Assembly (NCBI GenBank): GCA_020062545.1
Contig: JAGUWD010000029.1
Location: 15,672 to 79,671, forward strand
Reading direction: 5' to 3'
DNA from: Thermodesulfovibrionales bacterium
GTDB taxonomy: Bacteria > Nitrospirota > Thermodesulfovibrionia > Thermodesulfovibrionales > Dissulfurispiraceae
Length of the DNA: 64,000 bases
A program made the position numbers and the translations under genes. The notes below the pieces were generated by a model. It saw nothing but the letters and a program-made list of their open reading frames with translations, had not been told where the DNA came from and searched no databases. Shown here one piece after another: positions 10,012-54,386 of this stretch (positions are counted from its first letter, which is position 1; each line of letters begins with the position of its first letter).

Positions 10012-10014
10012 AAA

Positions 10015-36036: not shown

Positions 36037-37416
36037 ATGGGGGACACAGAAGTCAGGAGGAGTGGAAGTCTTGCATTGGTCTTATTTTTATTAATCTCTG
36101 CTTTAATCTTTTCCATTTATCTATCAGAAAGTCACTCTATTGTAAACGCCCAGACCAAAGAGTCGTGCGTTACGGACAGGTGCCACAGCAAGATGGGAAA
36201 GGAGAAGTTTGTGCATGGCCCCGCAGCAGTGGGTGACTGTATGGCCTGCCATACAGGAGATGCAGCCAGACACAAATCATCGCCTTCCAGTTATAAATTC
36301 GCACCAATTAAGAATGTAGGAGAACAATGTTATAAATGTCATGACAGGGTAGATACAAAGAAAGAAGTTCACAAACCGGTCAAAGAAGGCAATTGCTCAA
36401 AATGCCACGATCCTCACCAATCTCCTTATAAATACCAGCTGCGTGGAGACGGACAGAACCTTTGCTTCATGTGCCATGACAAAAAGATTGCTGCCGGCAA
36501 ATTTGTCCATGGACCTGTTGCTGTTGGTGGATGCTCCATGTGCCACAACCCGCACCAGACAGATTTCCCCAAGATGCTGAATGCATCGGGAAATGATGTT
36601 TGCTTTATATGCCATACAGATAAGGCGGATGCATTCAAAGGAAAGAAGTTTAGCCATAAGCCTGTCCGGGAAAAGTGTACTAACTGTCACAGCCCTCATG
36701 CCGGCGACTATAAATACAATTTCAAGGCGGATGGCTCAAAGGACTTATGTCTGGGATGTCACAAGGATAAAAAAGAATGGATTGCCAATGTTAAAGTTAA
36801 ACACGGTGGTCTTGAAACAGACAAGAAATGTCTTGCATGTCATGACCCGCATGTCTCTGATTATGTGAAACAACTGGTAAAAGAACCCATGGATGTATGT
36901 ATGATGTGCCATGACAAGCCCCTTCAGGCCCCTGATAAAAAACTTCTCGATATGAAGACATATTTGGCTCAAAATAAAGACTGGCATGGTCCTATAAAGC
37001 AGAAGGATTGTTCGGCATGCCACAATACCCATGGTTCTGATAATTTCAGGATTCTCAGAAAATATTTTCCCCCTTTGTTTTATGCGCCATTTGACCCTAA
37101 AAATTACGAGCTATGCTTTAATTGTCACGAGAAGACGCTTGTACTTGATGCAAAAACTACAACACTGACAGGGTTCAGGAACGGTGACCAGAATCTCCAC
37201 TTTGTGCATGTCAATAAGGCGATTAAGGGACGTACATGCAGGGCGTGCCATGATGCACACTCAACCAATAATCCGAAACACATAAGGGATGCTGTGCCTT
37301 TCGGTGCATGGGGATTACCCGTGGGATTTCAGAAGACTGCAAACGGAGGCTCATGCCTGCCCGGGTGCCATCAGAAGTTCGAATACAACAGGATAAACCC
37401 GGTTAAAAACAGGTAA
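36037..37416 (+). CDS. multihaem cytochrome c, 13 CXXCH plus one CX4CH and one CX3CH
   Basis: Counted by eye: CMACH CYKCH CSKCH CFMCH CSMCH CFICH CTNCH CLGCH CLACH CMMCH CSACH CFNCH CRACH, plus CVTDRCH and CLPGCH; N-terminal TM/signal anchor. Confidence 0.9.
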   Translation: MGDTEVRRSGSLALVLFLLISALIFSIYLSESHSIVNAQTKESCVTDRCHSKMGKEKFVHGPAAVGDCMACHTGDAARHKSSPSSYKFAPIKNVGEQCYKCHDRVDTKKEVHKPVKEGNCSKCHDPHQSPYKYQLRGDGQNLCFMCHDKKIAAGKFVHGPVAVGGCSMCHNPHQTDFPKMLNASGNDVCFICHTDKADAFKGKKFSHKPVREKCTNCHSPHAGDYKYNFKADGSKDLCLGCHKDKKEWIANVKVKHGGLETDKKCLACHDPHVSDYVKQLVKEPMDVCMMCHDKPLQAPDKKLLDMKTYLAQNKDWHGPIKQKDCSACHNTHGSDNFRILRKYFPPLFYAPFDPKNYELCFNCHEKTLVLDAKTTTLTGFRNGDQNLHFVHVNKAIKGRTCRACHDAHSTNNPKHIRDAVPFGAWGLPVGFQKTANGGSCLPGCHQKFEYNRINPVKNR

Positions 37417-37421
37417 AGGCA

Positions 37422-37976
37422 ATGAAAAGACAGGAAAAAGAAGAGGTTAAGGTAGAGAAAGGCAAATTAAAGGAAAATATATTTCTGTTTCTCATTATAT
37501 TTTTCTTCTTTACCTTTACCTCTACCTTTACTTATGCCCAGGATAGGGAAAAGGCCGTCTCCCTCTATAAGGAGTCTGTCAAGTTTTTTGAAGACGGCAA
37601 TATAGATAAGGCAATAGAGACCATCAAAGAAGCGATTAATGCAGACCCGAATTACCCTGAAGCCTACGACCATTTAGGGTATATGTTTTTAAAAAAGGGG
37701 CAGCTTGACGAGGCGATCAATGCCTTTAACTCGGCACTGAAAATAAATCCGAGGATGCGGACTTCCAAAACAGGGATAGGCAGTGCGCTTATGAAAAAAG
37801 GGGATCTGAAAGGCGCTGAGTCTATCCTCAAAGAGGCATTGATACTCAATCCCTATCCTTCAATGACACATTATGTACTGGGACTTGTTTATGAAAAACT
37901 CGGTGACTATGAAAAGGCCATAATGCATTACAAGGAAGGCATAAAGACCTATAAGGTGAGGATAGGGAAGGAATGA
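37422..37976 (+). CDS. secreted TPR-repeat protein
   Basis: Signal peptide ...FTFTSTFTYAQ; three to four TPR units (A..Y...L..NP.. pattern). Confidence 0.75.
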   Translation: MKRQEKEEVKVEKGKLKENIFLFLIIFFFFTFTSTFTYAQDREKAVSLYKESVKFFEDGNIDKAIETIKEAINADPNYPEAYDHLGYMFLKKGQLDEAINAFNSALKINPRMRTSKTGIGSALMKKGDLKGAESILKEALILNPYPSMTHYVLGLVYEKLGDYEKAIMHYKEGIKTYKVRIGKE

Positions 37977-39082: not shown

Positions 39083-39086
39083 AAAA

Positions 39087-40193: not shown

Positions 40194-40239
40194 AATTGTT
40201 CGCCAAATAAAATAAAAAGCCTAAGATAAAGGGGAGAGT

Positions 40240-41232: not shown

Positions 41233-42768
41233 ATGATGAAGCTATTCAAAAGTGTAAGGTTTAGACTGCTGATATTATCGCTCCTTGCTGTATTCGTCAT
41301 TACATCCATGGTAGTCCTGTCGGATGTGCTTGATACAAACGAGAGACTTATTGCAGCCCAGAAGGAAAAGTCCGTACTGCTGTCCGATACCATAAAACAG
41401 AGCATAATGCTTCTCATGCTCGAAAATAGATGGAAGGAGCTCCAGGTACTGATAGAAGATTTATCAAAAAACAATCCTGAATTAAAAGAAGTGAGGATAT
41501 TCCATCCGGTTTCGGGCCGTATTATTATATCCAACGAAACCGAGGATATAGGGAAGAGGATATATGAAAAGGACTGGAACAGATTTATAAAGCAGGAGGA
41601 GTCGCCTTTTGTGATAAAAAAACATGGCAGTATGTTTGCCACCCGCGTGTTACCGATTAAGAACATGCCACCCTGCTATAGGTGTCATCCACCCGAACAG
41701 AAAACACTGGGGGTCCTCGATGTTGAGATATCCCTTGCAGTTGCCCATGAATCCATAAAGGCATCGACATATAAACATATCACAGGACTTGTCGTCGGAT
41801 TTGTTGTAATAAGTATGATATTTCTTATCGGCGGAGAAAGACTTATTAACACTCCTCTGAGGGAATTAATAAATGTGATGAAAAAGGTGGAGTCAGGGGA
41901 TCTGTCGATCAGGATTAAAGAGATGAGAAATGACGAGTTCGGTTATCTATCTGGTGCATTCAATCATATGATTGATACCCTTGAGTCTGCAAAGAAGGAA
42001 ATAGAGAGATGCCACATGCAGCAGATGGAAAGGGCATCGAAGCTTGCATCCCTCGGAGAGATTATCTCCGGAATAGCCCATGAGATAAAGAACCCGCTGG
42101 CCGGCATAAGCTGTGCTATCCAGGTGTTTAATTCCGAACTAAGCGACGACGACAGCAGGAAGCCCGTTATTACCGAGGTTTTAAATCAGGTAAACAGGCT
42201 CGACAGAATAGTGAAGGACCTTTTGAGCTATGCAAAACCCAAGCCCCCCATGTTTGTGCCTTCGCGGATAAGCGAGATTTTAGAGAAGACCCTTTTCTTT
42301 GTGTATCCCGAGGCAAAAAAACAGAACATAGTTATCGACAATCAAGTCAGCAGCGAAATCCCTGAAATACTCATGGATCCCGACCAGGTACAGCAGGTGT
42401 TCCTGAATATAACCATAAATGCTATTCACGCAATGCCTAATGGCGGCATATTGACTATATCAGTATCAAAGAAAGACAGACAGGAAGTGCAGGATGAGAT
42501 AAAAAGGCTTGTACAGGATGATAAGTTTATAGCTGTTAATTTTCATGATACAGGCAAAGGCATATTACCGGAGGACTTAACTTACATATTCGAGCCGTTT
42601 TTTACAAAAAAGACCAAAGGCACAGGTCTTGGATTGTCTATAAGCCGTAAGATTATTCAGGAGCACGGCGGCGATATTACAGTGCGAAGCGAAGTTGGTA
42701 AGGGAAGCTTATTTACTGTATACTTACCGATAAAAAGTTCACAGCCTACGGTTCACGGTTCACAGTAA
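41233..42768 (+). CDS. sensor histidine kinase with a periplasmic CXXCH (haem c) domain, HAMP, HisKA, HATPase
   Basis: Two TM helices flank a roughly 150-aa loop containing PPCYRCHPPEQ; HAMP; H-box GIAHEIKNPLAGI; GTGLGLSISRKI. Confidence 0.88.
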   Translation: MMKLFKSVRFRLLILSLLAVFVITSMVVLSDVLDTNERLIAAQKEKSVLLSDTIKQSIMLLMLENRWKELQVLIEDLSKNNPELKEVRIFHPVSGRIIISNETEDIGKRIYEKDWNRFIKQEESPFVIKKHGSMFATRVLPIKNMPPCYRCHPPEQKTLGVLDVEISLAVAHESIKASTYKHITGLVVGFVVISMIFLIGGERLINTPLRELINVMKKVESGDLSIRIKEMRNDEFGYLSGAFNHMIDTLESAKKEIERCHMQQMERASKLASLGEIISGIAHEIKNPLAGISCAIQVFNSELSDDDSRKPVITEVLNQVNRLDRIVKDLLSYAKPKPPMFVPSRISEILEKTLFFVYPEAKKQNIVIDNQVSSEIPEILMDPDQVQQVFLNITINAIHAMPNGGILTISVSKKDRQEVQDEIKRLVQDDKFIAVNFHDTGKGILPEDLTYIFEPFFTKKTKGTGLGLSISRKIIQEHGGDITVRSEVGKGSLFTVYLPIKSSQPTVHGSQ

Positions 42769-42845
42769 AAAATTATTTACTATTCACAGTGAACTGGCGA
42801 GGGTGACCTAATTTTGCCGTGAACAGTGAACAGTGAACGGTGAAC
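42737..42845. repeat. GTTCAC/GTGAAC heptamer-array palindrome between kinase and regulator genes
   Basis: Left arm ttcacag cctacgg ttcacgg ttcacag (overlaps the kinase C-terminus SSQPTVHGSQ*), central ttcacagtgaa, right arm ccgtgaa cagtgaa cagtgaa cggtgaa. Confidence 0.85.
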
Positions 42846-42861
42846 TATTTAAGGAGGCTAC

Positions 42862-44247
42862 TTGGTTCACGCAAAGATTCTTGTTGTAGATGATGAAAGG
42901 TTTATAACATGGTCTCTTAAGCAACACCTTGAGAAAGAGGGCTATGAAGTCTTCACTGCCGAATCGGGTGAAGAGGGGCTTGAGGTATTCAGGACAGAGC
43001 TGCCTGACATTATCCTCCTTGATATTCATCTCCCTGGAATAAGCGGTCTTGAAACCCTTGAAGCCATAAGGAAAATCAACAAGGAAGTCATTGTGGTTAT
43101 CATAACTGCCCATGGAGATATAGAGACAGCAGTTTCTGCTATAAAGTTAGGCGCATACGATTTTGTTGAAAAACCATTCGATCTGAACAGGATATCCGTT
43201 CTTATCAAAAAGGCGCTGGAAACGATAACCCTGAAAAGGGAAGTTACCTATCTAAGGGAAGAGCAATATGATAAGTATAGCTTTAACAACATAATAGGAC
43301 AATCCAAGTCCATGAAAGAGGTCATAGCCCTCGCAAAGAAAGTTGCAGAGAGCGATGCCAATATCATACTCATTCAGGGTGAGAGCGGTACAGGCAAGAA
43401 CCTCATAGCACGGGCCATCCATTACCACAGCGCAAGGGCATCCGAGCCCTTTGTCGAGGTTACGTCAACAGCCATCCCGGAGACGCTGATAGAGAGCGAG
43501 TTGTTTGGCTTCGAAAAGGGTGCATTCACAGATGCAAAGGCATCTAAAAAGGGGCTCTTCGAGCTTGCCAGCGGCGGCACGCTCTATCTCGATGAAATAG
43601 GAGATATCAAGCCTGCCACACAGGCAAAATTATTGAGGGTTATTGAGGATAAGACATTCAAGAGGGTAGGCGGGCTTAAGGATATAGTCGTGAATGTGAG
43701 GATTATCGCTGCCACAAATAAGAATCTCGAGAGTGCGGTTAAAGATGGCAGTTTCAGGGCTGATCTTTATTACAGGCTTAAGGTTATTCCCATATTCATA
43801 CCGCCGCTGAGGGAGAGGAAAGAGGATATAATCCCTCTCGCCATGCATTATATCAGGCTTTTCAACAGGGAGTTCAAAAAGAATGTAAAAGGCATATCTC
43901 CGGAGGCCGAAAAACTGCTTGTGAATTATCCGTGGTACGGCAACACGAGGGAGCTTAAGAATGTGATAGAGAGGATATGCATCCTTGAAGATACCGATGT
44001 CATATACCCGGAGCACATACCTTCGGAAATTGTCGATTATGTGGGTACTGCGGAGGTTTCTCCTGCAGAAGAGGAAAAGGCATCATTCAATATCCCTCCC
44101 GAGGGGCTTTCCCTCAAGAATGTGGAAAAGGATTTGATCGTAAAGGCCCTCCAGATGGTTAACGGCAACCAGACAAGGGCCGCAAGACTGCTTGGCATAT
44201 CGAGGGATGCGCTCAGGTATAAGATGCAGAAGTTCGGACTATTATAG
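42862..44247 (+). CDS. sigma-54-dependent response regulator (NtrC family: REC, AAA+, Fis-type HTH)
   Basis: ILVVDDE..D; GESGTGKN Walker A; GAFTDA (GAFTGA loop variant); C-terminal NQTRAARLLGISRDALRYKM; TTG start with RBS aaggagg. Confidence 0.92.
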   Translation: MVHAKILVVDDERFITWSLKQHLEKEGYEVFTAESGEEGLEVFRTELPDIILLDIHLPGISGLETLEAIRKINKEVIVVIITAHGDIETAVSAIKLGAYDFVEKPFDLNRISVLIKKALETITLKREVTYLREEQYDKYSFNNIIGQSKSMKEVIALAKKVAESDANIILIQGESGTGKNLIARAIHYHSARASEPFVEVTSTAIPETLIESELFGFEKGAFTDAKASKKGLFELASGGTLYLDEIGDIKPATQAKLLRVIEDKTFKRVGGLKDIVVNVRIIAATNKNLESAVKDGSFRADLYYRLKVIPIFIPPLRERKEDIIPLAMHYIRLFNREFKKNVKGISPEAEKLLVNYPWYGNTRELKNVIERICILEDTDVIYPEHIPSEIVDYVGTAEVSPAEEEKASFNIPPEGLSLKNVEKDLIVKALQMVNGNQTRAARLLGISRDALRYKMQKFGLL

Positions 44248-44595
44248 TTACTTCTTGTGGCACTGATTGCACAGAATTATTGTATCTAATCTTAACATCA
44301 TGGGGTCTTTTGAGTGCTGGTCATGGCATGTAATGCATGTGAGCTTCCCTTCTTTTGTCAGAGGAAGGTTTTTTGGTACGGGATATTTAGGGATTATATC
44401 GACTATATGTTCTCCTGCTTCTACCCTCTCCCGATGACAGGTGATGCACAGTTCGGTAAGAGGTTTTTTTACAGGCCCTCCGTTATGAGATATATGACAT
44501 GCTGTGCACTCTTTTGTCTGGAGTGCAGAAGTCTGATGAGATACCATCAGTGGTATAAAAATTGATAAAACAAAAATGTAAATAGTATGTTTCAT
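44248..44595 (-). CDS. small periplasmic tetrahaem cytochrome c
   Basis: CTACH CITCH CITCH CNQCH; signal peptide; its stop abuts the regulator stop. Confidence 0.85.
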   Translation of the reverse strand: MKHTIYIFVLSIFIPLMVSHQTSALQTKECTACHISHNGGPVKKPLTELCITCHRERVEAGEHIVDIIPKYPVPKNLPLTKEGKLTCITCHDQHSKDPMMLRLDTIILCNQCHKK

Positions 44596-44613
44596 AAGAT
44601 ATATAGACAAAAA

Positions 44614-45696
44614 ATGTTATTTACAAAAATCTTACCACAAAAAAAAGAACAGGTAAAGGTAAAGGGGAAAAAAATATTTTTTAACTGTCTATTATTGCTC
44701 TTTACCTCTACCTTTACCTTTACCTGTCTCTCTTGTGCTCCTAAAACAGAGCAAGTCGAATTATTCTGGCCGCAGCCGCCTGATGAGCCGAGGATTAAGT
44801 GGGTTGGATGGATAAGGGGAGAGAAGGATGTCGTTGGAGAAACAGGCAAGGAATGGCTGATGAGGTCAGTGGTTGGCGAGGGAACAGATGTTCTCCTTGC
44901 ACGGCCATACAGTGTCTTTGCTTCAAAAGGCAGGGTTTATGTGGCAGACACTGGGGGCTCGAAGATAGCAGTATACGATACGGTTAACAAAAAGGCGTAC
45001 TATATAGGTAAAAAGGCAGGTATCGGTGGTCTTAGTAAGCCAATCGGTGTGGTTGTTGATGGGGAAGGCAATATATACGTAACCGACTCATCACAGGACA
45101 GGGTAATAGTTTACAACCAGAACGGCGATTACAAATATACCCTTAATAAGAAAGGGCAATTTAAGCAGCCAACCGGAATAGCTATCAATGAATCCCTCGG
45201 TAGGATATATGTAGTTGATACACACAGACACAATGTAACTGCAATGAATAAAAATGGCGATATGCTTTTTGAATTCGGCAAAAGGGGAAGTAACGAGGGT
45301 GAATTTAATTATCCCAACAGTATTTATGTTGACAGGCGCGGATTGGTTTATGTCAGCGATACCCTGAACTTCAGAGTGCAGATATTCGATCCCGATGGAA
45401 AGTTTATCAGGCAGATAGGCTCCATAGGCGATACCCCCGGAAGACTTGCAAGGCCGAAAGGTGTAGCTGTAGACTCTGACGGAAATACATATATCGTGGA
45501 TGCTGCCTTTAATAATGTCCAGATATTCGACAGGGAAGGCACCTTACTGCTCTTCTTCAGCTCTATGGGCATAGGGCCGGGCAAATTATGGCTTCCGTCA
45601 GGAATCTTTATAGACGAAAAAGACACGATCTATATAGCAGACCAATTAAACAGACGGATAGATATATTCCAATACCTTCGCCATTTCCCTCACTAA
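44614..45696 (+). CDS. NHL-repeat six-bladed beta-propeller lipoprotein (paralogue 1)
   Basis: LSC lipobox; repeated ..P.G(I/V)A(V/I)D..G.IYV(A/T)D..N.R(V/I)Q(I/V)F.. blades; start may be ATG 44587. Confidence 0.85.
   Translation: MLFTKILPQKKEQVKVKGKKIFFNCLLLLFTSTFTFTCLSCAPKTEQVELFWPQPPDEPRIKWVGWIRGEKDVVGETGKEWLMRSVVGEGTDVLLARPYSVFASKGRVYVADTGGSKIAVYDTVNKKAYYIGKKAGIGGLSKPIGVVVDGEGNIYVTDSSQDRVIVYNQNGDYKYTLNKKGQFKQPTGIAINESLGRIYVVDTHRHNVTAMNKNGDMLFEFGKRGSNEGEFNYPNSIYVDRRGLVYVSDTLNFRVQIFDPDGKFIRQIGSIGDTPGRLARPKGVAVDSDGNTYIVDAAFNNVQIFDREGTLLLFFSSMGIGPGKLWLPSGIFIDEKDTIYIADQLNRRIDIFQYLRHFPH
44650..44726 (+). repeat. GGTAAA/TTTACC hexamer palindrome inside the NHL1 signal-peptide coding region
   Basis: caggtaaaggtaaagg (44650-44665) is the perfect inverted complement of cctttacctttacctg (44711-44726). 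Confidence 0.85.
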
Positions 45697-45720
45697 CTGT
45701 GTGATATTACGCACCTATAT

Positions 45721-45779
45721 AGCTCGTAGCTCATGGCTCATTGTTCATAGCTCACTGTTCGCGGCTTACAGTTTGCAGC
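45721..45779. repeat. heptamer array (left arm)
   Basis: agctcgt agctcat ggctcat tgttcat agctcac tgttcgc ggcttac agtttgc. Confidence 0.8.
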
Positions 45780-45798
45780 ATAAATAGTGTTTTAAGAT

Positions 45799-45879
45799 GT
45801 CATTGCGAGGCGTTAGCCCGAGGCAATCTCAAAAATATCTGAAAAAACAAATAGATTGATTCGTTTTGCTCGCAATGAC
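45799..45879. mobile_element. 81-bp gene-less derivative of the GIY-YIG cassette (MITE-like inverted-repeat pair)
   Basis: gtcattgcgaggcgttagcccgaggcaatctc ... agattgattcgttttgctcgcaatgac; same termini (GTCATTGCGAG ... CAATCT) as the repeats flanking the GIY-YIG gene at 59221-59565. Confidence 0.7.
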
Positions 45880-45889
45880 AATTAATCAA

Positions 45890-45919
45890 GCCGTGAACTG
45901 TGAACCGTGAACAGTAAAC
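45890..45919. repeat. GTGAAC heptamer array (right arm)
   Basis: gccgtga actgtga accgtga acagtaa. Confidence 0.8.
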
Positions 45920-45928
45920 TTTTTCATC

Positions 45929-45944
45929 TGGCATGGGCTTTGCT
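45929..45944 (+). promoter_or_regulatory. sigma-54 (-24/-12) promoter
   Basis: TGGCAT-gggct-TTGCT, matching TGGCAC-N5-TTGCW; about 95 nt before ATG 46041. Confidence 0.7.
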
Positions 45945-46040
45945 TATAAATTGTCAAGAAGTTTGAAATAAATTTATAGGGGTGGAGATATTATGAAAAA
46001 CTTAACAATCTTTAAAACCAAAAAACGGGAGGTGAGTAAG

Positions 46041-46736: not shown

Positions 46737-46750
46737 TGCGATTTCTTCAA

Positions 46751-46781
46751 AAAAAGGGGAGATATTCTCCCCTTTTTTTTT
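46751..46781. terminator. intrinsic terminator
   Basis: ggggaga tat tctcccc stem-loop flanked by an A-run and TTTTTTTTT. Confidence 0.8.
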
Positions 46782-46820
46782 GAGTTCTGAGTTTGCCATA
46801 TATATGGTAAGATTAAAAAA

Positions 46821-46878
46821 AGTTCACATTTTATAGTTCACAGCAGAAGACTTTTTTCCAAACAGTGAACAGTGAACT
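46821..46878. repeat. GTTCAC/GTGAAC heptamer palindrome
   Basis: agttcacattttatagttcacag ... acagtgaacagtgaact. Confidence 0.7.
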
Positions 46879-46886
46879 ATTCTGCT

Positions 46887-47069
46887 ATGGAAAAGACCAC
46901 AATATACTTGGATAAAGACATAAAGATGCATCTGCTCGAAATGGTTGCCGATATAAGCAAAAGACAGGGCAAGAGGGCTGCCATGTCTGATATAATACGC
47001 GATGCATTAAGAGAATACTTTGAAAGACAGGAACAGGAAAAGGTAAAGGAGGATGATAGGTATGAGTAA
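46887..47069 (+). CDS. ribbon-helix-helix (CopG/antitoxin-like) protein with no adjacent toxin
   Basis: MEKTTIYLDKDIKMHLLEMVA...DIIRDALREYF RHH pattern. Confidence 0.6.
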   Translation: MEKTTIYLDKDIKMHLLEMVADISKRQGKRAAMSDIIRDALREYFERQEQEKVKEDDRYE

Positions 47070-48156
47070 ACAGAAACAGATAAAGGTAAAGATGAAAAAA
47101 CTTTTAGAAAGATTTACCTTTTTACTGTTTTTCTTTGCCTTTACCTTAGCCTGTTTCTCCTGTGCTCCGCCTGCAGTTAAGGAAGTCAAGCTTATCTGGC
47201 CATCACCCCCTGAGGAACCGAAATTGGCATATGTGAACAGCTATAAAGGAGAAAGCGATTTTAAAAAGAAAGGTTTTTTTGAAGCTGTTCTGGGTGAGAC
47301 AATGTTCAGCACCGACCTCCAGAAGCCTTATGGCGTTACTGCTTATGGAGACAAGATGTATGTTACGGATACGCAGAGTGCGGTTGTATTTGTTTTTGAC
47401 CTGAAGGAGCAGAAAGTAACCTTTATGGGACATAAGGATATGGGCAAACTTGCCCTTCCAGCAGGCGTTGCTGTTTCATCTGACGGCATCATCTTTGTGT
47501 CAGATGCAAAACAGAAGAGGGTATTCGGTTATGATGCAAACGGCAATTTAAAGATAGCCCTCGGGAAAAAGGATGAATTTAAAAATCCCGGCGGTATTGC
47601 CATAAACAATGATATTGGAAGGCTATATGTAGTTGACAGTTACGGACACATGGTTCATGTTTACTCCACGAAGGGTGATCCACTTTTTACCTTTGGCAAA
47701 AGAGGGGACGGGGATGGGGAGTTCAATTATCCGTCCAATGTAGCTATCGAGAGAAAGACAGGCAATATCTATATAGTGGATACACAGAACTTCAGGGTAC
47801 AGGTTTTTGATAAGGACGGAAAATTTATAAAGAGATTCGGGCAGATCGGCGATGTGCCCGGCACTTTTACAAGGCCTAAAGGCATCGGCATTGACAGCGA
47901 AGGCCATATTTATGTGGCTGACGCTGCATTTGACAACCTCCAGATATTCGATGACAAGGGGCAGATACTTCTTTTCATTGGAGGCCCCGGACATGAGCCT
48001 GGATATTTCTGGCTTCCTGCAGGCGTGTATGTGGATGAAAAGGACAGGGTATATATCGTAGATTCTTTTAACCATAGAGTTCAGGTGCTCCAGTATCTGA
48101 GCGAAAAGTGGAAGAAGGAAAATCCTGAAAAATACAAAGAATACTTAATGAAATAA
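47062..48156 (+). CDS. NHL-repeat beta-propeller lipoprotein (paralogue 2)
   Basis: FSC lipobox; same blade pattern and WP.PPEEPK motif as paralogues 1 and 3; overlaps the RHH stop by 8 nt. Confidence 0.85.
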   Translation: MSKQKQIKVKMKKLLERFTFLLFFFAFTLACFSCAPPAVKEVKLIWPSPPEEPKLAYVNSYKGESDFKKKGFFEAVLGETMFSTDLQKPYGVTAYGDKMYVTDTQSAVVFVFDLKEQKVTFMGHKDMGKLALPAGVAVSSDGIIFVSDAKQKRVFGYDANGNLKIALGKKDEFKNPGGIAINNDIGRLYVVDSYGHMVHVYSTKGDPLFTFGKRGDGDGEFNYPSNVAIERKTGNIYIVDTQNFRVQVFDKDGKFIKRFGQIGDVPGTFTRPKGIGIDSEGHIYVADAAFDNLQIFDDKGQILLFIGGPGHEPGYFWLPAGVYVDEKDRVYIVDSFNHRVQVLQYLSEKWKKENPEKYKEYLMK

Positions 48157-48161
48157 GACAG

Positions 48162-49106
48162 ATGAAAATCTTAATTTTAGTTTTAACCTTGACCTTAACC
48201 TCAACCTATTCTTTTGCCTCTGATTTGAAGGAGAGTAAGGTTGTAGCAACTGTGAACGGCTCTGCAATTACCCGCGCCGATCTGGACATGGAGGTAAACA
48301 GGCTGTTGCCACAGGAGCTTTATCACCGTAGCGTTACGCCGAAAAAACAGGCAGAGGTAGAGAAGAAGGCCATTGAGAATCTCATCAATGCAGAGCTTTT
48401 AAATGCAGAGGCAAAAAGGCAGGGACTAAAGATCGATAATTTGGAGTTCAAAAAAAGAATTGATGCTGTTAAGGCGTCTTATCAGACCAAAAAGGCATTT
48501 GAGGACGCGCTGAAAAAGAGCGGCTTGACTGCCTCTGTTTTTGAGGAAAAGGTCAGGGAAGGCATGATGGTGGAAAAGCTTATCGAGAAGGAAGTGAAGG
48601 TCTCGCTTACAGATAAAGACCTTGAGGACTATTACAAAAAGCATACGGAGAAATTTAAAGAACCAGAGGCAGTGAGACTCGGGTATGTATATATAAAGAT
48701 AAACCCATCGGAGCCGGATGGAAAGAAAAAGGCAAAGGAGAGGGCAAAAGAGGCATATTCCAAGATCAGGTCCGGAGCGGACTTTGCCCAAATTGCACAG
48801 ATGTATTCCAATGATATGAGCAGGATTAAGGGTGGAGACGTGGGATTTGTCCACAGAGGCACAATGCCACATGACATCGAAAAGGCGGCTTTTTCTTTGA
48901 AAGCAGGACAGGTGAGCGAAATCCTCGAGACCGATATCGGATACCATATAATCAAGGTCGAGGAAAAGAGGGCATCAAGGCATGTCCAGTTCAAGGAGAT
49001 AAAAGACAAGCTCAGAAAAGAGCTTACAGAATCCATGCAAAAAGAGAGACTGGAAGGTCTTATAAAAAGACTAAGAGAAAATGCAAAGATACAATATATA
49101 CAATAA
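48162..49106 (+). CDS. SurA/PrsA-like parvulin-type peptidyl-prolyl isomerase
   Basis: Signal peptide; SurA-N-like helical part; parvulin core GGDVGFV..G.....E.AAFSLKAGQVSEILETDIGYHIIKVEE. Confidence 0.85.
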   Translation: MKILILVLTLTLTSTYSFASDLKESKVVATVNGSAITRADLDMEVNRLLPQELYHRSVTPKKQAEVEKKAIENLINAELLNAEAKRQGLKIDNLEFKKRIDAVKASYQTKKAFEDALKKSGLTASVFEEKVREGMMVEKLIEKEVKVSLTDKDLEDYYKKHTEKFKEPEAVRLGYVYIKINPSEPDGKKKAKERAKEAYSKIRSGADFAQIAQMYSNDMSRIKGGDVGFVHRGTMPHDIEKAAFSLKAGQVSEILETDIGYHIIKVEEKRASRHVQFKEIKDKLRKELTESMQKERLEGLIKRLRENAKIQYIQ

Positions 49107-49142
49107 AGACAGGTTGGGGCTGGTGAAGAGGAAAAAAGATGG

Positions 49143-50882
49143 GTGGAAAGGGGGTCCCCAAAAAGTCGCAGACTTTTTGGGGTAATGGTGTTGTTGAGGG
49201 GGATATGGATTTATGCCCTGGCAGGCACTACTATATATATGATTAGCCTTGTGTTTCCTTTGATAACATTTGCACAGAAAACCGGCGGTCTTTCCGGACT
49301 TATCCAACTAACGTACCAGAAGGACAGGAATAAAGACATCGGCGCTGAGTCCGAGAAAAACACATTTACTCAAGAGTATAAATTACAGTATCAGGGACAT
49401 GTTTACAGTCCGAGGCTTTTGATGTATAACATTGGGGGAACTTTCAGGAAAGAGGATTCTGATACAGAAGAGTCCCGTGCTGGAAATACATCTACAAAAA
49501 CAAAGAGCAAGGATTACAATCTCAAGCTGGACTTTATTCAGGGGACAAAATATCCTTTTACCATATTTAAAGAAAAAATAGAATTGCCCACATGGACGAT
49601 TCAACCCGAGCAGACATTTCAGACAAAGCAAACCTCTGACAGATATGGGCTTTTCGGCAATGCATTTCTTGGCAAGGGTATAAACATGAGGTATGACATT
49701 CGTAAGGACAATACGAGGACGACCGGACAAACCGAAGGAACTGACCAGAGGAACAGGAGTTTTCTGTTTGGAATTGACAGCAGGAAGGAAGACAAATTTA
49801 TAGATACTTCATATAATTACCAGCATAATTTTGAAAAAAGTAAAAACCAATTTGAGGCAATTAACGATGCTAAGGTCTCCTGGGGATTAAGGGGCAAAAC
49901 CACAAACTTCAATATGGATATGAGTTACAACGACAACAGTTTTACTGAGTTTACGACTACCACGGCTAATATGAACCTGAACTATATGCCGTCAACGGAT
50001 TTTAATTCTAATTTCAGTCTTTATGGCAACAAAATAGAGCAAAAAGAAAATAGAGGATATTTTACAACACTTTTTGAAAACACAACATACAGAATTAGCC
50101 CTTATCTTACAACAAACCAGAACCTCATGTTGTATAAAAGCACCGGGGATTTTGGAAACGATGCTACGGAATCGCTGACTCTCGGCCTCGTATTCACTAA
50201 ACAGGCGCCTCAGGGTATCACCTATTCTGCTGATACTTCCGTAAACGGGACCGCACAGCAGTCAAGTACAACAAAAGACAGGAATTCCACATTCTACTCT
50301 TTAGGTGCGCGTGTGTCGAAGTTTTTCGAAAAGATAAGCTCAGAGGTTAATGCAGGCGGTTCCTATTATTACTACAATTCATCCCTTGGTGGAAGAACTA
50401 CGAGATATGCATTTAACGGAGGCTTTATAAGCCGCTTTATAAAAAACATGACACTCCAGAGCCTCCTCAATTTTACCGAGGAAGACACCATTGGCGATGA
50501 AATAGAAGGTGCATCGTCAGAGTCGAAGACGAAGCGTCTTATCTCTGACAATTCCATAGGCTACTTTCTGCAACTCGGCTTTAGAGGCAGTCTTGATGCA
50601 AAGGTTGGTGCTATCTTTGAAAAAGGCACCACTCCGAGGACATTTAGATATGGCACCTTAACCTTCAGATATGCCATGAGGAGGGATCTGTCGGCAAATG
50701 CAGGATTGAACTTTTACAAGGAAAATATTAATAACACACGGACAATTACAGGCTTTCTGGGTGTAGAATATAAATTAAGGGGTATTACAATGAATCTTAG
50801 AAATGAACTATGGAAAGAGAAAGGGACTACAGGGACTAAAACCAGGTCTTCAACATTTTTGCAGGCATCAAGACCGTTTTAA
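49143..50882 (+). CDS. outer-membrane beta-barrel (porin-like) protein
   Basis: Signal peptide ..LITFAQ; long run of alternating-polarity strands rich in Y/N/T/G; C-terminal ...FLQASRPF (terminal Phe); start position uncertain. Confidence 0.65.
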   Translation: MERGSPKSRRLFGVMVLLRGIWIYALAGTTIYMISLVFPLITFAQKTGGLSGLIQLTYQKDRNKDIGAESEKNTFTQEYKLQYQGHVYSPRLLMYNIGGTFRKEDSDTEESRAGNTSTKTKSKDYNLKLDFIQGTKYPFTIFKEKIELPTWTIQPEQTFQTKQTSDRYGLFGNAFLGKGINMRYDIRKDNTRTTGQTEGTDQRNRSFLFGIDSRKEDKFIDTSYNYQHNFEKSKNQFEAINDAKVSWGLRGKTTNFNMDMSYNDNSFTEFTTTTANMNLNYMPSTDFNSNFSLYGNKIEQKENRGYFTTLFENTTYRISPYLTTNQNLMLYKSTGDFGNDATESLTLGLVFTKQAPQGITYSADTSVNGTAQQSSTTKDRNSTFYSLGARVSKFFEKISSEVNAGGSYYYYNSSLGGRTTRYAFNGGFISRFIKNMTLQSLLNFTEEDTIGDEIEGASSESKTKRLISDNSIGYFLQLGFRGSLDAKVGAIFEKGTTPRTFRYGTLTFRYAMRRDLSANAGLNFYKENINNTRTITGFLGVEYKLRGITMNLRNELWKEKGTTGTKTRSSTFLQASRPF

Positions 50883-50885
50883 AGG

Positions 50886-50970
50886 GTGTTCACAGTTGAC
50901 AGTTTATTGTTCACTGTTAAAACATAAATGCTAAATGCATTGAGAAATCCTATCCGTGAACAGTGAACAC
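50886..50970. repeat. GTTCAC/GTGAAC heptamer palindrome
   Basis: gtgttcacagttgacagtttattgttcactgtt ... ccgtgaacagtgaacac. Confidence 0.75.
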
Positions 50971-50998
50971 AAAAATAATCGACGGGGAGCTATAAAAG

Positions 50999-52072
50999 AT
51001 GATGAGAAAAACAGTAATTGCAATAATAACATTGGTTTTGGTCATAACTACCTTAACCTATTCTTTTGCCATGGGACCAAAGATTGAAAAGAAAAAGGAG
51101 CACATAGTATGGCCGCCGCCGCCATGGGAGCCGAGGATAGAATTTCTGTACACCATTACAACACCAGATGACTTTGATATTAAAAAGGGCTTTTTCCGTC
51201 GCTTGTGGGAGTTTGTCGCCGGTGAGTCGAGGGAGGGTGTTGTAAAGCCATTTGGAGTCTTTGCAGATGACAGCGGCAGGGTATATGTTACAGATACTGC
51301 TGATCAGTCGGTGCATGTATTTGACCCAAAAGACAATAATTATTTTGTTGTCGAGGGAATAAACAAGAAGTCCCGCCTCACCTCACCCATCAGCGTGGCA
51401 ACAGACGCTGAAAGGAATATCTATGTGTCTGATTCGGTTATAAGAAGGGTGTACGTTTTTAATGAAAAAGGAAAATTTATCAGGGAGATAGGCTCAGGCA
51501 ATGCTATGCAGAGACCTACAGGTATTGCCATAGATAAGGCATCGGGAATCCTCTATGTCGTCGATACCCTTGCCAGCAAAATCTTTGTTTATAGCCTTGA
51601 CGGCAAACATATAAAGACCATTGGAGAGTACGGGGGTGGTAATGGCCAGTTCAATCGTCCAACCTTTATTGCAATCGGAAAGGATGGGAACCTGTACATC
51701 ACGGACACAATGAACGTGAGGGTGCAGATAATTGATAAAAACGGGAAATTTATCGGGAAGTTCGGTAAAAGAGGCGATGGAACAGGCGATCTGGCAAATC
51801 CGAGAGGAATTGCTCTCGACAGCGAAGGGCACATTTATATTACAGATACCATCCTTGAGGCAGTACAGATATTCGATAAGTCAGGACGGCTTCTCCTCGT
51901 ATTCGGCAGAAGAGGGACGAACAGCGGCGAATTTGCCTTGCCGGCAGGTATAAGCATTTCAAATGATGATAAAATATATGTAGCAGATTCTTATAACATG
52001 AGAATACAGGTATTCAGGTATCTAAAAACAGGCAGAGGTATAGGTAAAGGTGAGGATGGAAAAAGCAAATAA
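50999..52072 (+). CDS. NHL-repeat beta-propeller protein (paralogue 3)
   Basis: Signal peptide ..TLTYSFAMG; WPPPPWEPRI motif; six NHL-like blades. Confidence 0.85.
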   Translation: MMRKTVIAIITLVLVITTLTYSFAMGPKIEKKKEHIVWPPPPWEPRIEFLYTITTPDDFDIKKGFFRRLWEFVAGESREGVVKPFGVFADDSGRVYVTDTADQSVHVFDPKDNNYFVVEGINKKSRLTSPISVATDAERNIYVSDSVIRRVYVFNEKGKFIREIGSGNAMQRPTGIAIDKASGILYVVDTLASKIFVYSLDGKHIKTIGEYGGGNGQFNRPTFIAIGKDGNLYITDTMNVRVQIIDKNGKFIGKFGKRGDGTGDLANPRGIALDSEGHIYITDTILEAVQIFDKSGRLLLVFGRRGTNSGEFALPAGISISNDDKIYVADSYNMRIQVFRYLKTGRGIGKGEDGKSK

Positions 52073-52110
52073 AAAACAAGTATTTAGTTCTTTACCACTA
52101 CCTTTACCGG
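52031..52110. repeat. GGTAAA/TTTACC hexamer palindrome spanning the NHL3 stop codon
   Basis: ggcagaggtataggtaaaggtgagg (encodes the GRGIGKGED tail) ... ctttaccactacctttaccgg. Confidence 0.75.
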
Positions 52111-52126
52111 TTTACTGTCTTAATTG

Positions 52127-52142
52127 TGGCACTAAATTTGCT
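52127..52142 (+). promoter_or_regulatory. sigma-54 (-24/-12) promoter
   Basis: TGGCAC-taaat-TTGCT, an exact match to the consensus; about 60 nt before ATG 52201. Confidence 0.75.
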
Positions 52143-52200
52143 TAATAACTTTTAGAGAAATGTGTTGAAAGAGACCGTTCAATAACTGAAGGGGGTTTAG

Positions 52201-54294
52201 ATGTCATTGCGAGGAGCAGCAGCGACGAAGCAATCTCAGAAGACTAAAAATATCTTCTTGATTTTATTGGCTATCTTTACCTTTGCCTTTGCCTGTTTTT
52301 CTTATGCTGGTATTGTAAATACAAAACATAATATGTCTATTACCGGTTCTGGCGGTATAAAGGCAACTACAGAGACAGAGATATGCGTGTTTTGCCACAT
52401 ACCACATAATGCACAGCCGGGCAGGCCTTTATGGAACCATGACATGCCGGGCTCGGCATATACCATGTATACAAGCGAATACCTGCACAGGGCAGGCTAT
52501 ACTGTTCCAACAGGGCTTGGAACAACCACAGGCACTCCCGGAATGCTTTCAAGGCAGTGTCTGAGCTGCCATGACGGCACGGTTGCTGTAGGGGCTGTTT
52601 ATATGGTCAGAGGGACGATCTTAGGAACAAGCCTTATTGCAATGTCCGGTGTTGCCGCAGGTGGAGAAATACCTACTGCTGCACCAGGTTATATAGGCAC
52701 AGACCTCAGGGCGCATCATCCTGTCGGCATCGAGTATAACCCGGCAATTAATATTGCCTTTGGTTCTGGCTCAAGGACTATAGAGCTCATAACGAACCCC
52801 ACATCAACGGCCATGAAGCTTTACAGGATAAGCGCGAAGGACTATGTTGAATGTTCATCGTGCCATGACCCGCATCTGGAGAATACTAAATTTTTAAGGG
52901 ATACCAGCGGCGCAACATTTGCAGCAAAGATAAGCAATACATGCACTGCATGCCATAATAAAACAGGGTGGTCGGGAAGTGTTCACCAGACTAATGCAAC
53001 AGCATATTCTGATGCAAGCGTGAGCACAACTTTTGGTGCCGGGACAATATCATCCCTTGTCTGCATGAACTGCCACAGGACGCATAAAGGCCTCGGCACT
53101 CCGTATTTATTAAGACAGGCTGAAGAGACAACGTGTTTTCAGGGTGCATCGAGCTCTGTTAATGAGACTGCCTGCCACGGCTCAAGTTCTTCGGCAACTA
53201 CAAACAGGATTCAGACAGTTATAACGAGGACATATAAACATCCAACAACAACAATATCAGGTAAACATACCGACCTCGATGTTCTTTATCCCACAGGAGG
53301 TACTCCTGCCGGAAGCCTCGGACTCGACTGGTCGAATGCAAAACATGCTGAATGCGTTGACTGCCACAATCCGCATAAGGCAAAGAATACTCCAGCACGT
53401 GTGGGAACAACCGCATGGTATCCAACGACTATTGACAATACATCCAATCAAACAGATAAATCAGGGGCGCTTACAGGTGTAACTGGCGTGCAACCAGGTA
53501 CTGCCTCTATTTGGACAGTTCCTACAACTTTTACAACTCTGGAGTCTTCGACATACGAATATCAGATATGCTTTAAATGCCATTCATACTGGGCATTGAG
53601 GGACAATGACGGCATTACTACTTACACAACAGCATCAGGCGTAACAGTAACGGATCAGGCAATGGAATTCAATCCTAACAACAAGTCTGCCCATCCTGTT
53701 GTCGTTACATTGAATAACCAGACCGGTTCTTATTCACCAAAACCATTGGCATCTTCCCAGATGTCTTCTCCTTGGGCAACCAATTTGGGCAATCAGACAA
53801 TGTACTGCTCTGACTGTCATGGTGCTGACAATGAAACATCGGGAGACCCAAAAGGACCTCATGGGTCAAATGTGAAATATATGCTTAAAGGTACAGGGAA
53901 ATACTGGCCTACAAAGAGCGATGGCACTACATTGTGGAGATTGAATTCTACCGATGCCCAAAACAGCCAGCTTTTTTGTAGAAATTGTCATCCTGTCTGG
54001 AATACTAATAGTGTTCACTCAAAGGGCGACCATAATAGTAAAAGTTACACCATAGGCGGACAAAGTGGCACAGGCATCCCATGCGTCGGATGTCATATAG
54101 TAATTCCTCACGGTTCAAAGAGGTCGAGGTTGATAGGTTATGCCTCGGATATTTCTCCATACGATTATAATAACAATACTAGCCAGATAACTCAGTTTAA
54201 AAAGGCATCAGGCCCGTCTTTTTATTCAAAGACTAACTGCCAGGCCGGTTGCGCTGGCGACCACAGTAACTCTGTATCAGGTGCCGATCCATAG
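52201..54294 (+). CDS. decahaem cytochrome c (small-cytochrome-like N-terminal module plus a roughly 450-aa extension)
   Basis: CVFCH CLSCH CSSCH CTACH CMNCH CVDCH CFKCH CSDCH CRNCH CVGCH; signal peptide ..FACFSYAG; RBS gggggt; the first 12 codons lie in a solo cassette repeat. Confidence 0.88.
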   Translation: MSLRGAAATKQSQKTKNIFLILLAIFTFAFACFSYAGIVNTKHNMSITGSGGIKATTETEICVFCHIPHNAQPGRPLWNHDMPGSAYTMYTSEYLHRAGYTVPTGLGTTTGTPGMLSRQCLSCHDGTVAVGAVYMVRGTILGTSLIAMSGVAAGGEIPTAAPGYIGTDLRAHHPVGIEYNPAINIAFGSGSRTIELITNPTSTAMKLYRISAKDYVECSSCHDPHLENTKFLRDTSGATFAAKISNTCTACHNKTGWSGSVHQTNATAYSDASVSTTFGAGTISSLVCMNCHRTHKGLGTPYLLRQAEETTCFQGASSSVNETACHGSSSSATTNRIQTVITRTYKHPTTTISGKHTDLDVLYPTGGTPAGSLGLDWSNAKHAECVDCHNPHKAKNTPARVGTTAWYPTTIDNTSNQTDKSGALTGVTGVQPGTASIWTVPTTFTTLESSTYEYQICFKCHSYWALRDNDGITTYTTASGVTVTDQAMEFNPNNKSAHPVVVTLNNQTGSYSPKPLASSQMSSPWATNLGNQTMYCSDCHGADNETSGDPKGPHGSNVKYMLKGTGKYWPTKSDGTTLWRLNSTDAQNSQLFCRNCHPVWNTNSVHSKGDHNSKSYTIGGQSGTGIPCVGCHIVIPHGSKRSRLIGYASDISPYDYNNNTSQITQFKKASGPSFYSKTNCQAGCAGDHSNSVSGADP

Positions 54295-54367: not shown

Positions 54368-54386
54368 AAAAACAGGAGGTTTTAAA

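Follow-up and report, generated by a model that had tools for sequence, protein, structure and literature searches.

Why do several unrelated exported proteins of one bacterial gene island carry signal peptides written in the same DNA repeat? The island encodes cytochromes and NHL-propeller proteins in a member of the Nitrospirota, and we analyzed it within a stretch of 64,000 nucleotides (the window). A preliminary description had proposed that an inverted repeat of GGTAAA and TTTACC units acts as a portable signal-peptide-plus-hairpin module. Its descriptive part was borne out: the quoted arm coordinates and translations are all correct, and a single DNA repeat does encode, in unrelated proteins, both the Lys-rich n-region (from its 5′ arm) and the Phe/Thr core (from its 3′ arm).

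The window contains six hairpin pairs with the layout AACAGG(TAAAGG)n–loop–(CCTTTA)nCCTGT, spread over 37.4–62.5 kb. Each arm is a direct array of two to five hexamer units and is itself no palindrome. The arms are 19–88 nt apart, and the total length of the element is approximately 80–130 nt. Complementarity runs past the hexamers into the CAGG/CCTG ends and an inner A-run/T-run. The window has 20 occurrences of the 8-mer GGTAAAGG, with 1.52 expected, and none of 100 shuffles reached that number. Two-unit arms were seen 17 + 13 times, with approximately 3.4 + 2.3 expected. RNA folding gave z-scores between −3.2 and −5.1 for five pairs; the sixth, at 61535, scored −1.7. In three of the six inverted pairs, those at TPR, NHL1, and NHL2, the arms are translated as the n-region (VK/GK) and h-region (FT) of the signal peptide.

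All copies described here are on the plus strand. At the TPR gene, the outer 5′ arm ACAGGTAAAGG (37409–37419) contains the TAA stop codon (37414–37416) of the upstream multihaem cytochrome and includes a Shine–Dalgarno (SD)-like AAGG, 3 nt 5′ of the TPR ATG (37422). The inner 5′ arm (37443–37466) is read as the n-region EVKVEKGK and the 3′ arm, made of CTTTAC/CTCTAC units (37506–37532), as the h-region FFTFTSTFT. The 5′ arm of NHL1, ACAGGTAAAGGTAAAGG (44649–44665), is translated as QVKVKG and lies approximately 12 nt from a σ54-like motif of a divergent small cytochrome gene (44248–44595, minus strand). Its 3′ arm (44700–44727) reads FTSTFTFTC, of which the segment 44711–44727, CCTTTACCTTTACCTGT (TFTFTC), complements the 5′ arm at 17 of 17 positions with a separation of 45 nt. 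NHL2 has two nested pairs (47029–47049/47138–47158 and 47079–47094/47111–47122). The outer 5′ arm (47029–47049) encodes EQEKVKE at the C-terminus of a small RHH-like ORF (46887–47069) and also provides the NHL2 SD region; the inner 5′ arm (47079–47094) is translated as IKVKM and the 3′ arm CTTTGCCTTTACCTTAGCCTGTTTCT (47133–47158) as FAFTLACF. The n-region/core layout previously described for these three genes is thus confirmed.

In the PPIase signal peptide, a 3′-type array of the TTAACC/TTGACC variant (48183–48206, LTLTLTST) stands without a 5′ partner. PPIase orthologues retain a 5′ arm, GGTAAAGGTAAAG, in the gap that separates the stop codon of NHL2 from the ATG of PPIase; a 12-nt indel leaves the window without it. 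The NHL3 signal peptide contains ACCTTAACCTATTCTTTTGCC (51050–51070) and has a 16-mer in common with the PPIase signal peptide (48203–48218). As had been noticed, this segment, AACCTATTCTTTTGCC, is shared by the two genes, and it occurs at 48203 (PPIase) and 51055 (NHL3) only. At the end of NHL3, the 5′ arm (52029–52056) encodes the K/G-rich C-terminal tail GRGIGKGE. The 3′ arm (52090–52110) is non-coding and ends 17 nt 5′ of the σ54 promoter TGGCACTAAATTTGCT of the decahaem gene (52127–52142; 11 of 11 consensus matches). The decahaem signal peptide contains a further 3′-type array (TTTACC/TTTGCC; 52273–52296, IFTFAFAC) with no partner in its own transcript. Its DNA is similar to the NHL2 segment (28 of 34 positions identical), but the earlier wording "nearly identical" was too strong. 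An element with a weak stem (61535–61611) follows a radical-SAM gene and precedes a σ54-like promoter (61619–61634) of the cytochrome gene at 61712. The last element, (GGTAAA)4 … CTCTACCTCTACCTTTTCCTTCACCTG (62434–62525), is upstream of the cytochrome gene at 62584 and is nearly unchanged in the relative L126. Copies that are non-coding or at gene ends had been reported at 52031–52110, 61535–61609, and 62434–62525, and all three were found again. Overall, the copies at TPR, NHL1, NHL2, PPIase, decahaem, and the NHL3 tail are coding; those at 52090–52110, 61535, and 62434 and one in the relative L102 are non-coding.

In relatives of the island, the element is found at the same junctions between genes, with varying unit number, unit sequence, and reading frame. 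The upstream stop lies within or just before the 5′ arm, with the ATG directly after, at TPR, NHL2, PPIase (three relatives), and the L124 decahaem gene. Across orthologues the 3′ arm is read in all three frames: FT, LP (L124 PPIase), and YL (L124 NHL2). The NHL1 orthologues are 81–90% identical in protein sequence, yet the unit differs on both arms, being GGTAAA/TTTACC in the window and GGTTAA/TTAACC in L001. Matched changes on both arms are also seen in L102 NHL2 and in the L002 TPR gene (GGAAAG/CTTTCC). In 13 of 13 comparisons, the signal-peptide DNA bearing the element was less conserved (identity 0.51–0.77, with 6–42 gap columns) than the mature parts (0.76–0.95). This is the opposite of the idea that the signal-peptide DNA might be the better-conserved portion. 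Where signal peptides of the island lack the element, identity is 0.79–0.96, with at most three gap columns. All differences in signal-peptide length between orthologues are multiples of three, and the frame is kept. A lipobox, ..SCA(P/A), is conserved in the alignment of the NHL orthologues. In more distant NHL homologues the lipoprotein signal peptides are ordinary, which argues that the element moved into signal peptides that were already there and was not their source.

In L102, the mature-coding sequence of NHL1 is gone, and the hairpin and its 5′ flank remain as non-coding DNA. The leftover arm is 96.6% identical to that of the window, compared with approximately 76–84% for flanking matches. 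Signal peptides with 3′-type arrays and no 5′ partner occur in the decahaem gene, the window PPIase, and L003, where the lone array has expanded to LTLTLALTLALT. Decahaem orthologues down to approximately 64% identity have kept unpaired arrays over long periods; thus, an array that is already coding can do without the hairpin. The sense-strand fold is the better one in 11 of 13 island copies (NHL1 site excluded), a post hoc count in which the orthologues are not independent.

The pattern (GGTARA)n…(TYTACC)n is multicopy in Geobacteraceae, Nitrospirota, Nitrospinota, KSB1, Latescibacterota, and Omnitrophota. An exact pattern scan of other genomes, in which the design of the pattern set the arm spacing to 20–50 nt, gave at least 118 loci, with roughly 17 expected. 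Among the matches listed, single MAGs of Geobacteraceae, Latescibacterota, KSB1, Nitrospinota, and Nitrospirota hold 5–12 copies. The layout CAGG(TARAGG)n..(CCTYTA)nCCTG is common to all of these copies, the arm ends forming terminal inverted repeats. With genes called by crude ORF heuristics, 89 of the 119 copies listed (approximately 75%) are intergenic, typically 5–30 nt past a stop codon and 10–40 nt ahead of the next start. Many copies in other genomes are flanked by A-runs and T-runs. No target-site duplication was detected, the longest shared flank word averaging 3.13 nt in the copies and 3.13 nt in shuffled pairs (n = 118 listed). The wider family shows no bias between sense and antisense folding (30 vs. 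26). The variable unit position does not covary between A-T and G-C (AT 68, AC 81, GT 15, GC 9), which argues against strong RNA-level selection outside the island. The likeness of the element across phyla could reflect convergence without common descent.

We consider that the island copies are probably a REP-like junction hairpin that genes read through only at places where almost any protein sequence will do. Arrays of the hexamer GGTARA and, inverted, of its complement TYTACC, with CAGG…CCTG at the ends, normally fill a short spacer between genes. In this Nitrospirota island the spacers appear to have collapsed, so that neighboring genes read into the element. The 5′ arm doubles as a stop codon (TAA frame), a Lys-rich C-terminal tail, an SD region, or an n-region (GK/VK frames), and the 3′ arm as a hydrophobic core, in the FT frame here and in LP or YL in relatives. 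Such an overlap would be possible only because a suitable charge or hydrophobicity is nearly all that tails and signal peptides require. The repeat, rather than the protein, drives the sequence: unit number changes, apparently by slippage, unit sequence changes on both arms together, and the hairpin outlives the loss of coding function. The translated arms are best viewed as an oddity in the evolution of the genome rather than a module devoted to export. The nature of the element, its distribution, its reading frames, and its mode of evolution are shown by the data, whereas the role of the hairpin is an inference. It may act at the mRNA level, by occluding the ribosome-binding site or coupling the translation of neighbors; this is favored by the island stem, which closes over the downstream SD and start codon right after the upstream stop. 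That the element is selfish or neutral is roughly as probable as such a role.

A dedicated signal-peptide module, in which export is coupled to mRNA structure or to the binding of a regulator, could be argued from the use of the element by five unrelated exported proteins of the window, from the VK and FT frames, the sole ones in which signal-peptide arms are read there, and from its retention at the PPIase, NHL2, and decahaem starts in several relatives. Of the 34 window genes whose N-terminus has a hydrophobic signal, 7 contain arms within codons 1–70, compared with 0 of 26 others (Fisher 0.016); by hydropathy only, the arm-bearing N-termini score 2.4–3.5 within the first 40 residues. Two of the seven genes (18974 and 45993) have single arm matches at chance level, and the five clear ones belong to the same island. 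Nearly all genes of the island are exported, and any junction element must therefore meet a signal peptide there. The mostly intergenic position in other genomes, the ordinary signal peptides of distant homologues, and the use of LP and YL frames also speak against the module. In other genomes, exported proteins make up 15% of the genes directly downstream compared with a 25% background, so the supposed enrichment at secreted-protein genes does not appear at the level of the family, an outcome that the preliminary description itself had named as refuting its model. The persistence of 3′-type arrays without a 5′ partner also counts against the module, and a coupling of export to mRNA structure is likewise unsupported. 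We regard the module as distinctly unlikely. Ordinary K/V/F/T codon usage with local microsatellite slippage in signal-peptide codons, and hence no element at all, is scarcely credible. The changes in unit number between orthologues do resemble slippage, and 3′-type arrays can expand alone, as in L003. However, the same inverted design with CAGG/CCTG ends occurs in non-coding DNA of the window and at intergenic sites in other phyla, and orthologues use other reading frames. Codon bias, which the preliminary description had named as a competing explanation, is refuted by these two facts, and it is far exceeded by the 17-nt perfect complementarity and the 8-mer excess.

The opposite-strand tandem hexamers might instead be binding sites for a protein at the DNA level, with no stem. 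Candidate binders are the NtrC-type σ54 activator (42862–44247), IHF/HU as proposed for Geobacter, or an RHH protein (conserved ORF 46887–47069). RHH proteins bind tandem 7–8-bp repeats. Three non-coding copies end 8–17 nt 5′ of σ54 or σ54-like promoters of cytochrome genes (52127, 61619, and a weaker one at approximately 62534, read by eye and below the promoter-scan threshold), and the σ54-like motif adjoining the NHL1 copy is perfect in L001. The missing pairing covariation and strand bias would fit binding sites, and Aklujkar et al. interpret similar Geobacter arrays as sites of global regulators. However, σ54 motifs are not enriched beside the family in other genomes (2 of 239 flanks), and no hairpin accompanies the orthologous promoters of L126 and L128; the element is thus not a σ54 upstream activating sequence, an inverted repeat that would be conserved along with its −24/−12 promoter. 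Units also differ between loci of one genome (GGTAAA and GGTTAA in L102) while the arms match within a locus, which fits a stem or concerted evolution better than a single binding protein, and the complementarity extends beyond the hexamers. Binding arrays are, in our judgment, an unlikely explanation.

It is similarly doubtful that the hexamer hairpin is a cross-phylum control element inside operons that has become interlocked with protein export in this lineage. SD-like arms (AAGG/GAGG every 6 nt) would pair with anti-SD-like arms (CCUU/CCUC), and the resulting stem would cover the ribosome-binding site from which the downstream secreted protein is translated. Since the closing arm also encodes the core of the signal peptide, the control of initiation and the signal for export would have to evolve together, and slippage of the arms would adjust the two in one step. 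A related possibility is a hairpin-recognizing single-strand transposase, which would fit the missing target duplication and the TTAC-containing arms and would make the element a generator of new N-termini.

The element resembles the coding palindromes of Rickettsia, the paired tandem repeats of Geobacter, and the leader repeats of opa genes, and is itself a new variant. It shares with REP/REPIN sequences and MITEs the character of a short multicopy intergenic hairpin near stop codons, within operons. A REP unit is a 20–40-nt imperfect palindrome headed by a conserved tetranucleotide, and two such units in inverted orientation make up a REPIN; the arms here are tandem hexamers and not palindromes with a GTAG head. 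The terminal inverted repeats are those of a MITE, but the target-site duplication is missing. Intrinsic terminators have a G+C-rich stem, a 3–8-nt loop, and a U-tract. The loops here measure 19–45 nt, the stems are A+T-rich, and the terminator scan of the window reported none of the six elements.

Geobacter multicopy sequences consist of 3–5 tandem repeats of 7–9 nt, paired on opposite strands at variable spacing; they are mostly intergenic, and some are inserted in genes without a frameshift (Aklujkar et al. 2009, PMC2700814; 2010, PMC2996986). The paired opposite-strand arrays, the multicopy state, and the mainly intergenic position are alike, and many of the present matches are in Geobacteraceae. 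The unit differs, being GGTARA here and GTTGCTYN, TCTCCGTS(Y), MTYCTGA, or CCYTC in the described classes, and translation as signal peptides is not described there. The supplementary tables for G. bemidjiensis do not contain the GGTARA motif, nor does the literature searched contain the repeat's 14-mer. Rickettsia palindromic elements form a family that is both intergenic and in frame within genes, contributing a stretch of peptide at sites that the protein can accommodate (Ogata et al. 2000, as summarized in PMC10969869). The likeness lies in one repeat family being non-coding as well as in frame in ORFs with a tolerated added peptide; the Rickettsia elements are approximately 150 bp long, have no tandem hexamers, and sit in the bodies of metabolic genes, whereas the present element lies at gene junctions and is read as a signal peptide or C-terminal tail.

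In Neisseria opa genes, tandem CTCTT repeats lie in the DNA for the hydrophobic part of the leader, and their number is changed by slipped-strand mispairing (PMC3960869). Short tandem repeats of slippage-variable number in hydrophobic leader DNA are common to both systems, but opa has no inverted partner arm. Its slippage switches the frame on and off because the units are pentamers; hexamers keep the frame and change only the length of the signal peptide, so phase variation of the opa type does not apply. Cyanobacterial STRRs are short tandem heptamer repeats in intergenic DNA, and they are not known to code for signal peptides. They share the short intergenic tandem units with the present element and differ in their 7-nt unit. 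Heptamer arrays are themselves abundant in the window, several as inverted pairs. In-frame heptamer repeats in the linker of a UvrD/AddA-like helicase of the window follow the same principle.

GGTAAA/TTTACC palindromes had been reported in the preliminary description to encode the signal peptides of several unrelated exported proteins. On re-checking the window, all of its coordinates and translations were correct. The window has 20 occurrences of the motif GGTAAAGG, where 1.52 would be expected, and two-unit arms occur 17 times (GGTAAA) and 13 times (TTTACC) against approximately 3.4 and 2.3 expected. Six inverted arm pairs are present, all inside 37.4–62.5 kb. They lie at the TPR gene (37409–37532), the NHL1 gene (44649–44727, where 17/17 positions are complementary), the NHL2 gene (two nested pairs, 47029–47158), and the end of NHL3 (52029–52110), and at 61535–61611 and 62434–62525. 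All the pairs are alike beyond the hexamers, with the consensus AACAGG(TAAAGG)n–loop–(CCTTTA)nCCTGT, and for five of the six, folding is far more favourable than that of shuffled sequence (z −3.2 to −5.1). The signal-peptide regions of the PPIase and the decahaem cytochrome contain unpaired 3′-type arrays; that of the PPIase is a TTAACC variant, and that of the decahaem is identical to the NHL2 segment at 28/34 positions. The PPIase and NHL3 also have a 16-mer in common that is absent elsewhere in the window.

A search of the whole window at Rfam gathering thresholds returned no matching family. The elements are not reported by a scan for canonical terminators. Judged on the sequences alone, they lack the RYYYAAC/GTTRRRY cores of integron attC sites, do not fit CsrA or Hfq motifs, and have one spacer only between the arms, which argues against a CRISPR. 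Codon bias alone is excluded as an explanation by the non-coding copies and by the use of alternative frames.

The gene island around the element encodes multihaem cytochromes, three NHL beta-propellers, a SurA-like PPIase, TPR and AhpC-TPR proteins, ResB/CcsA cytochrome-maturation proteins, a radical-SAM enzyme, and a histidine kinase with a sigma54 activator (the kinase and NtrC-type activator span 41233–44247). Homologue names point to Nitrospirota for the island. Multihaem cytochromes are likewise clustered with NHL propellers in Desulfovibrio ferrophilus (PMC5815863). Nearly all products of the island are exported proteins, and the enrichment of the element at the starts of exported-protein genes in the window is due to this make-up.

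The element is most likely a property of the gene junction, not of the protein. The 5′ arm, (GGTAAA)n, reads as GK, VK, or a TAA stop; the 3′ arm, (TTTACC)n, reads as FT, LP, or YL, with all three frames open. Genes that terminate in the 5′ arm thus acquire a Lys-rich tail or a stop codon, as in the NHL3 tail GRGIGKGE, the tail EQEKVKE of a ribbon-helix-helix (RHH)-like ORF, and the cytochrome stop at 37414–37416. A gene beginning in or after the 5′ arm would acquire a basic n-region and then a hydrophobic core. Tolerance of such overlap would be restricted to tails, linkers, and signal peptides.

We scanned one genome per species for exact matches to the pattern GGTAAAGGTAAAG-N20-50-CTYTACCT and obtained at least 118 loci, against roughly 17 expected by chance. 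Among the matches listed, single metagenome-assembled genomes (MAGs) of Geobacteraceae, ‘Deltaproteobacteria’, Latescibacterota, KSB1, Nitrospinota, Nitrospirota/Thermodesulfovibrionia, and Omnitrophota carry 4–12 copies each. The layout common to the listed copies is (A-run)CAGG(TARAGG)n-AAAA..TTTT-(CCTYTA)nCCTG(T-run). At co-directional junctions the element fills the spacer, 5–30 nt past the stop and 10–40 nt ahead of the next start. By strict criteria, 3 of the further arrays at these loci are paired and 17 are single. No target-site duplications were found at the listed copies. A metagenome contig search with the PPIase protein gave two distant relatives only. In six Geobacteraceae MAGs (L023, L065, L079, L089, L090, and L108), many copies are composite elements, in which a further conserved module, GTGAGCG(A/G)AGCGAACG(A/G)ATAC, is inserted within an arm between two ACCT motifs.

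The interpretation offered with the original observation was partly supported, but the portable signal-peptide-plus-hairpin module that it proposes was not. The link to secreted proteins does not extend to other genomes: 89 of 119 copies among the matches listed are intergenic by rough ORF calls, and short matches that arose by chance in unrelated taxa make up most of the 15 ‘interior’ copies, based on heuristic gene calls. Genes directly downstream of the listed copies are not enriched for N-terminal hydrophobic signals (16/108 versus a 25% background).

We compared the syntenic islands of six relatives (L001–L003, L102, L124/L126, and L128). In close relatives the element is at the same junctions, yet it differs in nearly every respect. 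The NHL1 units are GGTAAA/TTTACC in the window and GGTTAA/TTAACC in both arms of L001, whereas L003 has a six-unit CTTAACCTTAGC array and has nearly lost the 5′ arm. The NHL2 copy of L102 consists of GGTTAA/TTAACC units, with G·U on the sense strand as the only type of mismatch; the TPR gene of L002 has GGAAAG/CTTTCC units. Three relatives keep the PPIase 5′ arm, GGTAAAGGTAAAG, which sits precisely in the gap from the NHL2 stop to the PPIase ATG. In the window this arm was lost via a 12-nt indel. The frame of the 3′ arm also varies: the window, L102, and L126 use FT, the PPIase of L124 uses LP, and the NHL2 of L124 uses YL. In decahaem orthologues down to approximately 64% identity an (F/L)T(F/L)(T/A) core persists, and their own transcripts lack a partner arm. 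In L102 the mature-coding sequence of NHL1 is gone, and the hairpin and its 5′ flank are retained as non-coding DNA, with the arm at 96.6% identity to that of the window, against approximately 76–84% for flanking matches.

One check suggested there was whether the signal-peptide DNA is better conserved than the mature parts. The opposite holds where the element is present: element-bearing signal-peptide DNA has an identity of 0.51–0.77 with 6–42 gap columns, compared with 0.76–0.95 for the mature parts of these genes, and the signal part is lower in 13/13 comparisons. Element-free signal peptides of the same island have an identity of 0.79–0.96 and at most 3 gap columns. In more distant NHL homologues the lipoprotein signal peptides are of the ordinary kind, so the signal peptides predate the element, which entered them and did not create them.

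At the TPR gene, NHL2, the PPIase (in three relatives), and the L124 decahaem, the stem covers the downstream Shine–Dalgarno (SD) sequence and start codon right after the upstream stop. The sense strand folds better in 11/13 island copies, a post hoc count that excludes the NHL1 site and in which copies are not independent. Together these suggest that the hairpin occludes the ribosome-binding site until the upstream gene is translated. A selfish or neutral repeat fits equally well with what the wider family shows, namely no strand bias (of 57 junctions between co-directional genes in other genomes, 30 fold better as sense and 26 as antisense) and no pairing covariation at the variable R/Y position of the unit (112 elements). 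There is also some support for the arms being DNA-level binding sites. Sigma54-type −24/−12 promoters precede four cytochrome genes (45929–45944, 52127–52142, 61619–61634, and approximately 62534–62549). Three non-coding copies end 8–17 nt upstream of the last three, and the NHL1 copy adjoins a sigma54-like motif of the divergent small cytochrome gene. The decahaem promoter at 52127, TGGCACTAAATTTGCT, matches the consensus perfectly; the motif near 62534 is weaker, was read by eye, and is below the scan threshold. However, the orthologous promoters in L126 and L128 have no element, and the listed copies show no sigma54 association (2/239 flanks versus a 0.5% background). Within one genome, moreover, the units differ among loci, yet both arms of each locus match.

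Geobacter genome papers describe unexplained tandem short-repeat arrays paired on opposite strands at variable distance, proposed there to be sites for global regulators, and repeat families within genes without frameshift (PMC2700814, PMC2996986). The paired arrays have the architecture of our element. The motif is absent from the supplementary repeat tables of G. bemidjiensis, and a literature search with a 14-mer gave no match. The Rickettsia RPE are in-frame coding palindromes like our element. The opa CTCTT repeat also encodes a leader peptide, but it is a frame-switching pentamer. The element is a variant of in-frame coding palindromes, Geobacter paired repeats, and leader-peptide coding repeats. 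As a natural example it is clear-cut: the same bases serve a non-coding hairpin repeat and a protein-coding sequence. It also shows which protein parts can absorb selfish or structural DNA, namely signal peptides, tails, and linkers. It accounts for the odd FTFTFT/LTLTLT/LPLPLP signal peptides and hypervariable N-termini in extracellular-electron-transfer clusters of uncultured Nitrospirota, with consequences for gene-start calling and signal-peptide prediction in metagenomes. The (GGTARA)n hairpins form a repeat family found across Geobacteraceae, Nitrospirota, Nitrospinota, KSB1, Latescibacterota, and Omnitrophota.

Other repeats are abundant in the window. Heptamer tandem arrays (TAGCTCA, GTTCACR/YGTGAAC, CAGGCTA, CAGAAGT, and others) lie at 9940–10012, 11203, 13217, 15350–15446, 42737–42845, 45719–45760, 45893–45920, 46820–46877, and approximately 50880–50985. 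Several are inverted pairs with the architecture of the hexamer element, and relatives differ in the heptamer present at a given intergenic site, as L126 does upstream of the decahaem promoter. The UvrD/AddA-like helicase-nuclease ORF (15992–18901) contains in-frame heptamer repeats with a 21-nt period at 16502–16537 and 18228–18305, and one array encodes ASSQLSV three times in the linker between UvrD_C and PD-(D/E)XK. Here too, permissive coding sequence tolerates a repeat. A second palindromic repeat, GTCATTGCGAGG...GCAATC / ...CTCGCAATGAC, is present at 45801–45880, 52203–52236, and 59223–59565. One copy encodes in frame the first decahaem residues, MSLRGAAATKQSQ, likewise in P0121, P0123, and L128, and others lie at the ORF starts at 59219 (LSLRGVAEAI) and 59536 (MRLLRFARNDRK). 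The L126 NHL1 has yet another in-frame repeat, VIPAKAGIQ.

A 29-codon ORF, MEKANKKQVFSSLPLPLPVYCLNCGTKFA (52056–52145), lies inside the NHL3-end hairpin. It has a good SD sequence (GGTGAGG), passes through the 3′ arm in the LP frame, and shares bases with the sigma54 promoter. Although probably no gene, it looks like a signal-peptide-only remnant. In L124 the decahaem sigma54 promoter is absent and the decahaem starts 16 nt past the NHL3 stop. The RHH-like ORF (46887–47069), whose tail is encoded by the 5′ arm, has a weak match to RHH_1 (E = 0.002, below the Pfam cut-off) and no toxin partner. In four genomes (the window, L102, L124, and L126) it directly precedes NHL2, whose start it overlaps. 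An RHH-PIN toxin-antitoxin pair (54384–55075) lies between the decahaem and the next cytochrome gene; this slot is taken in relatives by a DUF4258/DUF2283 or MqsA-like pair (L124 12208–12668; L126 12073–12599). A terminator-like hairpin, ACAGCTTCTTTGAAGCTGT followed by a T-run (61655–61682), separates the sigma54 promoter from the start of the cytochrome gene at 61712, and may be a leader attenuator.
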